NCBI GenBank assembly: GCA_046482545.1
Contig: JAWOEX010000039.1
Coordinates: 64,001 to 128,000, forward strand
Direction of reading: 5' to 3'
DNA length: 64,000 nt
From: Candidatus Thorarchaeota archaeon
Lineage (GTDB): Archaea; Asgardarchaeota; Thorarchaeia; Thorarchaeales; Thorarchaeaceae
The notes beneath the pieces are model-generated. The model did no database searches and was not told the origin of the DNA. It worked only from the letters and a program-made list of their open reading frames with translations. Shown here one piece after another: positions 1 to 588 of the stretch (position 1 is its first letter; each line of letters starts with the position of its first letter). A program made the position numbers and the translations under genes.

Positions 1-145
1 GTCTTACGGTATCCTGTGTTAGAACAAGAGACTTCTCTCCTTTGCTTGATTTTACTCCATCTAGGATGGGGAAAAAGAGATTCAACAACAATGCTGAAAG
101 AAGAAAATAGCAAATCATGGTTGCGTCTCTGTTGCTTTTTGACAT
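1..145 (-). CDS. Partial CDS (runs off the window edge), probable secreted/membrane protein
   Basis: ATG at 145 gives MSKSNRDATMICYFLLSALLLNLFFPILDGVK..., open to position 1, with a signal-peptide-like hydrophobic stretch. Not in the ORF track. Confidence 0.5.
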   Translation of the reverse strand, partial: MSKSNRDATMICYFLLSALLLNLFFPILDGVKSSKGEKSLVLTQDTVR

Positions 146-232
146 CTGAATCACAGTTTCGTAGTTAATCATTGCTTTTTAGAAAATGCTTCTACGCATG
201 AGTTCATCGATTTCTTCAAAGAACTAGAAGGT

Positions 233-382
233 GGGCACAGCGGTGGTAAGCAACCGGCGTTGCCGCGCCACCACCTAATTTGTTTTGCACGCCGCGTTCC
301 AGGAAACCTATTCTTAGGCTCCTGCAAGACTCTAGCCGCACGCCAGAGCGAGAGTCGGCTCACGTTATAGCCCGCTGTGCCC
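233..382 (-). ncRNA. Candidate structured non-coding RNA of unknown family (~150 nt)
   Basis: Perfect 11-bp terminal inverted repeat (233-243/372-382) enclosing four internal hairpins. 91/150 = 61% GC by hand count. G-U wobbles are tolerated only on the minus strand. Confidence 0.6.
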
Positions 383-588
383 TTTATACTCGTATAGACG
401 ATAGCACAATTTGCAGTTAAATTCTTGGGTACACGCGCATAAGTACCCCGTGAATGATTGCAAGCATAGAAGCGTAAAGTATGCGTTATCAGCGACTTCT
501 TGAACGTCAAATCCGTAAGTATACGACATGACTACCTGAATCCCGGACAACAGAGTTGCAGCATCAGAAATGATGGTAATCCTGATTC

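Follow-up and report, generated by a model that had tools for sequence, protein, structure and literature searches.

To our knowledge, few universal stable RNAs exist in archaea, namely, tRNA, rRNA, RNase P RNA, signal recognition particle (SRP) RNA, and guide RNAs. The Alu domain of SRP RNA has a loop-loop pseudoknot, while in the T-box (RF00230) the UGGN of the sequence GGUGGNACCGCG pairs with tRNA NCCA. The bacterial RNAs raiA and OLE are orphan structured RNAs that are lineage-wide and single-copy, with their own promoters and complex pseudoknotted folds. Bulge-helix-bulge splicing has been reported for tRNA, rRNA, and some mRNA, and Asgard EndA is of the two-subunit type, with an L1 loop linked to relaxed splicing motifs (PMC5829648). 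How introns arrive in Asgard genomes has been left open, little copying between tRNA genes having been found (10.64898/2026.10.13.758758).

Here, we describe a minus-strand gene in a 64,000-nucleotide stretch of a Candidatus Thorarchaeota genome (the window) for an RNA that we regard with high confidence as real and place in a new family outside known classes. It resembles archaeal tRNA genes with bulge-helix-bulge introns (PMC5829648; 10.64898/2026.10.13.758758) in the pairing of its 3′ end with a G-rich 5′ end, its unpaired ACC, its expected short leader, the putative 29- to 30-nt hairpin introns of some homologues (two in one gene), and its downstream relic 3′ copies. As in tRNA, a junction carries three hairpins, the first and third with loops able to touch. 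However, the RNA is twice as long as tRNA, lacks a T-loop, a 7-nt anticodon loop, and a T-arm beside the acceptor-like stem, and the base following ACC in the DNA of homologues is never A (52 T, 15 C). Like archaeal SRP (7S) RNA (RF01857), it appears to be a single-copy stable RNA with paired ends, ACC and a pyrimidine run after the closing helix, a comparable rate of retention in the family, and a possible loop-loop pseudoknot. In contrast, SRP RNA is ~310 nt long, no 30-nt inserts were seen in it across 77 genomes, and its motifs are absent from the RNA described here. The large loop L6 reads like the T-box consensus GGUGGNACCGCG, and its sequence allows pairing with tRNA NCCA, but the bases that would close antiterminator helices covary with another helix (P6) instead, there is no Stem I or specifier loop, and synthetase genes are linked only in part of one genus (tyrosyl-tRNA synthetase). 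Finally, the RNA is lineage-wide and single-copy, with its own promoter-like motif and a complex fold, as are raiA and OLE, but it has no Rfam 15 sequence or model match, is archaeal and smaller, and carries inserts that are putatively spliced by protein enzymes.

Location, predicted ends, and probable transcription of the RNA gene

The RNA gene is flanked by two genes that share its minus-strand orientation, one for a PAS histidine kinase, which ends at 589, and one for a small membrane protein, which starts at 145. Features of the locus are as follows.

415 to 428, minus strand: BRE/TATA-like promoter motif, CCAAGAA-TTTAACT, from motif comparison among homologues; TATA 39 nt upstream of the first G
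230 to 382, minus strand: predicted mature RNA of 153 nt, read from 382 to 230, GGGC to GCCC-ACC
230 to 232, minus strand: invariant 3′ ACC after helix P1, a feature common to Thorarchaeota SRP RNA
218 to 229, minus strand: pyrimidine-rich, terminator-like run; homologues average 87% pyrimidine in the 10 nt after ACC
1 to 145, minus strand: start of the gene of the ancestral downstream neighbor, a 183-aa predicted membrane protein; a synteny marker outside the RNA

The preliminary description of this DNA, made from the window alone, read these outlines correctly. Positions 233 to 382 are a GC island (60.7%, versus 34.5% and 41.7% in the flanks), an 11-bp stem (382-372/243-233) closes it, ACC and a pyrimidine run follow the stem, and the downstream gene has an ATG at 145; approximately 8 bp of the closing stem, not all 11, are kept family-wide. 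The minus-strand assignment also held. In paired columns of 62 distinct homologues (67% mean identity), 271 cells were G-U and 35 were A-C, an imbalance that fixes the strand, and the BRE/TATA-like motif was found upstream of 36/61 homologues in the sense orientation versus 10 in the antisense control. The suggested comparison of folding energy with shuffled sequences gave z-scores of −2.98 (minus strand) and −2.63 (plus strand), modestly better than shuffles and hardly telling the strands apart, so the evidence for an RNA is comparative. The 3′ ACC was considered as a special mark, an idea weakened by the same ending on SRP RNA.

Among homologues, the TATA element starts anywhere from approximately −29 to −46 while the first G stays fixed, so a short leader is expected in many copies; the 39-nt spacing in the window likewise implies that the primary transcript would carry one. 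Nine salt-lake metatranscriptome runs contain part of the stretch, and contigs cover the RNA in three of the four examined. The sole contig examined from one run spans 231 to 364 with adapter at 231, while two others extend past the predicted ends. As such contigs show neither ends, strand, nor level, they provide only a hint of expression. Independent transcription with a 3′ end near ACC is predicted with good support, and we place the probability of a stand-alone stable RNA at approximately 0.9.

Distribution and copy number

A covariance model matched exactly once in 68/86 genomes of the family, covering 16/16 genera and 21/23 high-quality assemblies; for comparison, SRP RNA was found in 77/86 and 22/23, respectively. 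The copy count asked for earlier came out as one in the genome of the window. BLAST recovered the RNA in 30 of 36 same-family genomes and in none outside, with one of the 30 matches (locus L027) spurious. The first model (R1) had no match in 124 other Asgard genomes, a second (R2), run with laxer filters, had none in 39 genomes outside the family, and a motif pattern searched in 400 genomes gave non-family matches that were isolated and unlike the RNA by eye; diverged or intron-riddled homologues outside the family could escape these searches. Carriers in a GTDB-wide pattern scan were mostly named Thorarchaeota, and bacterial and viral pattern matches all failed the covariance model. The earlier proposal of a novel Asgard noncoding RNA therefore stands as to noncoding RNA but narrows from Asgard archaea to one Thorarchaeota family. 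On this sequence evidence, the locus is a previously uncatalogued RNA gene, present in one copy in nearly all Thorarchaeota searched, and we found no description of it in the searchable literature, most subscription papers lying outside its reach.

Two genomes depart from this distribution. Searches of G011, which is 97% complete, recovered SRP RNA but no copy of the RNA and no close relative of the small gene that lies downstream of it. In G387 (L199:160-303), the RNA lacks its 3′ third, with short UCAUUA repeats on either side of the deletion, through either real loss or misassembly.

Comparison with known RNA classes

The preliminary description could match the element to no familiar class, and Rfam searches of the window and of one high-scoring homologue agreed, returning only chance matches at E values up to 10. 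A divergent RNase P, SRP, or 5S RNA was rejected since the true genes lie elsewhere in the genome: RNase P RNA (RF00373) on contig C34 at 156 bits, and SRP RNA and 5S rRNA on contigs C28 and C38. The element itself has no RF00373 match and falls below the cutoffs of the SRP and 5S family models. For tRNA, ARAGORN and Rfam (RF00005) were negative, and the loops are of 9, 6, and ~28 nt with no UUCRA. ARAGORN likewise reported no tmRNA, and the 3′ strands of P2 and P1 are only 1 to 4 nt apart, which leaves no room for a T-arm. A T-box riboswitch was set aside for want of an Rfam match, antiterminator helices, Stem I, or a position before an amino-acid gene; a Y RNA because Ro60/TROVE (PF05731) was not found in the 98.9%-complete genome; and C/D and H/ACA guide RNAs because the RNA ends in ACC, varies most in the internal loop between P1 and P2, and has no conserved boxes.

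Secondary structure

In the structural model, P1 (8 to 11 bp) leads through a variable asymmetric loop to P2 (6 bp) and a four-way junction with hairpins P3, P5, and P6.

372 to 382, minus strand: 5′ strand of P1, paired with 243-233; 98% paired, 5/8 pairs with compensatory changes
358 to 363, minus strand: 5′ strand of P2, after the variable asymmetric internal loop, paired with 251-246; 94% paired, 69 compensatory cells
328 to 356, minus strand: P3 hairpin with the invariant loop GGCGUGC (L3, 344-338), from the homologue alignment
300 to 324, minus strand: P5 hairpin with a 6-nt loop of conserved adenines (315-310), from the homologue alignment
252 to 298, minus strand: P6 helix (298-289 with 260-252), abutting P2 and closing the 28-nt loop L6; 97.6% paired, 9/10 pairs with compensatory changes
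263 to 278, minus strand: conserved L6 motif UUAGG-UGG-UGGCGCGG, comprising a Shine-Dalgarno-like part and GCGCG (268-264); homologues have inserts at 274/273 and 271/270

Across the 62 homologues, 94% of cells were paired and 35/43 pairs showed compensatory change, versus at most 46% paired in slid-partner controls; both figures come from an alignment fitted to the model, but compensatory pairs also numbered 32 in an unfitted alignment. Within the model lie all 23 of the pairs with the strongest mutual information, and RNAalifold recovered the same helices from a plain MAFFT alignment.

The multibranch fold first proposed for the window was about half right. Its helices GACUCU/AGAGUC (91% paired, 131 compensatory cells) and AGCCU/AGGUU (93%, 85 cells) are well supported, while four others fail by covariation: GGCU/AGCC (33% paired), UUGCA/UGCAA (68%), GUGGUG/UACCAC (78%, no compensatory change), and GGCAAC/GUUGCU (no compensatory change). 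Missing from that fold was the long-range P2, GUGAGC/GCUUAC. Regarding the suggestion that ACGCC pairs with either of two GGCGU tracts as a tertiary or switch contact, pairing with the second tract (293-289) was 96% with 52 compensatory cells and pairing with the first had no such support, and the contact is an ordinary secondary helix, P6.

Invariance over the 62 sequences extends to 28 positions, located at the ends, the junction, L3 (GGCGUGC), the P5 loop adenines, and L6, whose invariant core is GGUGGCGCG once inserts are removed. GCGCG of L6 (268-264) could pair over 5 bp with CGUGC of L3 (342-338) in 100% of homologues, and the model points to an L3-L6 pseudoknot; both strands are invariant, which places this pairing beyond the reach of covariation. 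Natural variants of L6 include L005:1503-1649, without one UGG repeat, and L009 and L014, each without a G after GCGCG.

Inserts resembling tRNA introns

Four inserts of 29 to 30 nt interrupt the otherwise invariant loop L6 in three genomes. The insert of G013 (29 nt) follows AGGUGG, that of G391 (30 nt) follows UUAGG, and G035 has both sites filled, with the three bases UGG between them. All four have unambiguous junctions, and their excision restores the family motif letter for letter. Each can form a bulge-helix-bulge in which two 3-nt bulges would be cut 2/1 and the intron helix stacks on the central helix: the first bulge (2 exon bases and 1 intron base) is followed by an intron helix of 8 to 9 bp, four exon-facing bases, and the second bulge. 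The intron helices pair at 9/9, 9/9, and 8/9 positions and, in the fourth, over 8 bp with a bulge, while the exon-facing bases differ by site (UAAG versus AUUA and GCCG versus AGGU). Shuffles with fixed junctions gave P values of 3e-4, <5e-6, 3e-5, and 5e-3. The central helix of all four has three of four pairs plus A.G rather than the canonical four base pairs, an arrangement that is a relaxed motif by the definition of the Asgard preprint (10.64898/2026.10.13.758758), and the genome of the window encodes two EndA paralogues.

Taken together, the sequences make it likely that the inserts are spliced as introns. For any single insert, a tolerated hairpin is possible, but this would not readily explain the pair in G035, where only three bases separate two inserts and the excision of each is exact. 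The G391 insert is also similar to a 30-nt tRNA-Pro intron of the same genome (15/18 stem bases identical; P = 5.5e-5, with ~20 introns compared), which suggests that an intron may have moved between a tRNA gene and this RNA gene. A metagenome scan for further intron-bearing copies gave 12 matches, all of which failed the model. In G000, ARAGORN misassigns several intron-bearing tRNAs on contig C28 (one "Ser" reads as a CAU anticodon) and reports only 19 tRNA genes, compared with 30 to 36 by Rfam in relatives.

Proposed maturation and possible functions

We strongly infer that the RNA is matured by tRNA-processing enzymes. In our proposal, it would be a stand-alone, stable, trans-acting RNA of Thorarchaeota in which EndA and a ligase excise the bulge-helix-bulge introns where present, a 5′ leader is probably trimmed by RNase P, and cleavage close to ACC forms the 3′ end. 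The L3-L6 pseudoknot would then lock the fold, using GCGCG and holding out the strand (A)GGUGGU, which would pair in trans, most likely with the anti-Shine-Dalgarno sequence of 16S rRNA (AUCACCU) and otherwise with the CCA end of tRNA. The RNA might thereby be a ribosome-binding decoy or translation regulator.

The 16S rRNA of this genome ends in GGAUCACCUCCU, one of the 5-mers with the highest enrichment ahead of its start codons is AGGTG (79 versus 18), and every homologue can form 6 to 7 bp with the anti-Shine-Dalgarno sequence. The duplex of loop and anti-Shine-Dalgarno has −11.5 kcal/mol, versus −9.3 kcal/mol for the CCACCA end. Since no start codon follows the Shine-Dalgarno-like strand within the RNA, the strand is more plausibly part of a decoy or regulator than of a message. 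However, a 6- to 7-bp G-rich match is weak, the same strand pairs with the 3′ CCACC of the RNA itself and with many tRNA ends (CCACCA), and the stronger canonical GGAGG occurs at the loop site in no homologue. When intergenic regions were searched for C-rich sequences able to pair with the loop, the matches were many and unranked, and none was of use. Pairing in trans between the loop strand and the conserved 3′ end of an RNA in the translation machinery is a tentative proposal, with odds below even. The more specific picture of an enlarged tRNA-like four-way junction, spliced by tRNA endonuclease, that controls or parks ribosomes by gripping a 16S rRNA or tRNA 3′ end is slightly less probable still.

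Alternatively, the same gene and processing could yield a scaffold of a Thorarchaeota-specific ribonucleoprotein, with the invariant loops making up its tertiary core or a surface for protein binding. In that case, a two-tier G-quartet might arise from the GG-U-GG-U-GG run, or the 3′ ACC of the RNA might receive GGU. We consider this as probable as pairing in trans. The core GGUGGCGCG can be explained wholly in cis, as GCGCG/CGUGC and GGU(GG)/(CC)ACC are both 100% pairable, and the junction bases and loop adenines are invariant as well. Yet these cis contacts have no covariation support, the model would place the 3′ end ~25 bp of stacked helix away from L6, one GG is missing in one homologue and another GG in two, and neither a partner protein nor a Ro60/TROVE match was found. 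The clustering of the 28 invariant positions at junction and loops, in sequences of only 67% mean identity, would also suit a ribozyme or ligand-binding RNA of new fold acting in trans. This is improbable, given that no Rfam ribozyme or riboswitch matched at E values up to 10, no alternative helix covaries, and no consistent metabolic gene lies downstream.

Relic copies and gene neighborhood

Genomic islands insert at tRNA and tmRNA genes, and the RNA gene may similarly have served as an insertion site for foreign DNA. At seven loci, degenerate 23- to 47-nt copies from its last third lie downstream at distances of 40 bp to 4.9 kb; in six, the copy stops at the 3′ end of the gene or close to it, one repeats the loop, and three occur in a row in G007, where the 3′ half of the gene is also repeated exactly with a different flank. 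By analogy, these relics could be attR-like remnants, a reading that would explain the variable cargo near the RNA. No tyrosine integrase was found beside them with PF00589, a model that may miss archaeal integrases. At locus L055 of G007, a 23-nt repeat of the loop motif, 39 to 61 nt after the RNA, has GGAGG where the RNA has GGUGG.

These partial copies, along with the terminal inverted repeat, might instead mark the RNA as a domesticated or relic part of a mobile element (a MITE, omega RNA, or bridge RNA). We regard this reading as very improbable and largely refuted: each genome has a single full copy, in a conserved location and with no target-site duplication (a pattern that does not fit a MITE), G-U pairs show strand bias, no other element of the genome matches, and no viral-contig match passes the model.

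The 183-aa downstream protein has no Pfam match and occurs in all 16 genera, with longer paralogous domains in proteins of 700 to 2500 aa. Beyond the window (contig C12), its gene is followed by those for an FtsX-like permease and an ABC ATPase. It adjoins the RNA in many genomes and, in ~19, is 0.6 to 12.6 kb off behind unrelated or opposite-strand genes; in genus g3, the window-protein query left it unmatched in 16/17 genomes, and the RNA is retained in 13 of these. A tyrosyl-tRNA synthetase-like gene (named by sequence motif) follows the RNA in part of genus g8, at 135 nt in L303 (G009) and 5 kb in L290 (G033). Also very improbable is the preliminary suggestion of a cis-regulatory leader, here of a membrane-protein and FtsX-like ABC operon, since, although that operon follows on the same strand in ~18/28 loci, many genomes have the gap or opposite-strand genes in between, homologues come with a promoter-like motif of their own and always with a pyrimidine run behind the RNA, the gene is often distant or not found, and introns and 3′ relics are traits of a stable RNA gene.

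Implications

This RNA, whose retention throughout an Asgard family comes close to that of SRP RNA, fits no known universal class. Introns at this locus would extend bulge-helix-bulge splicing to an orphan RNA, and the question of how introns reach Asgard genes is touched by the near match of the G391 insert to a tRNA-Pro intron. At this length, the RNA lends itself to transcription, splicing with purified EndA, and structure determination. We know of no archaeal RNA described as gripping the 3′ end of 16S rRNA or tRNA; if the role proposed here is true, it would represent a new housekeeping RNA class in an Asgard lineage.
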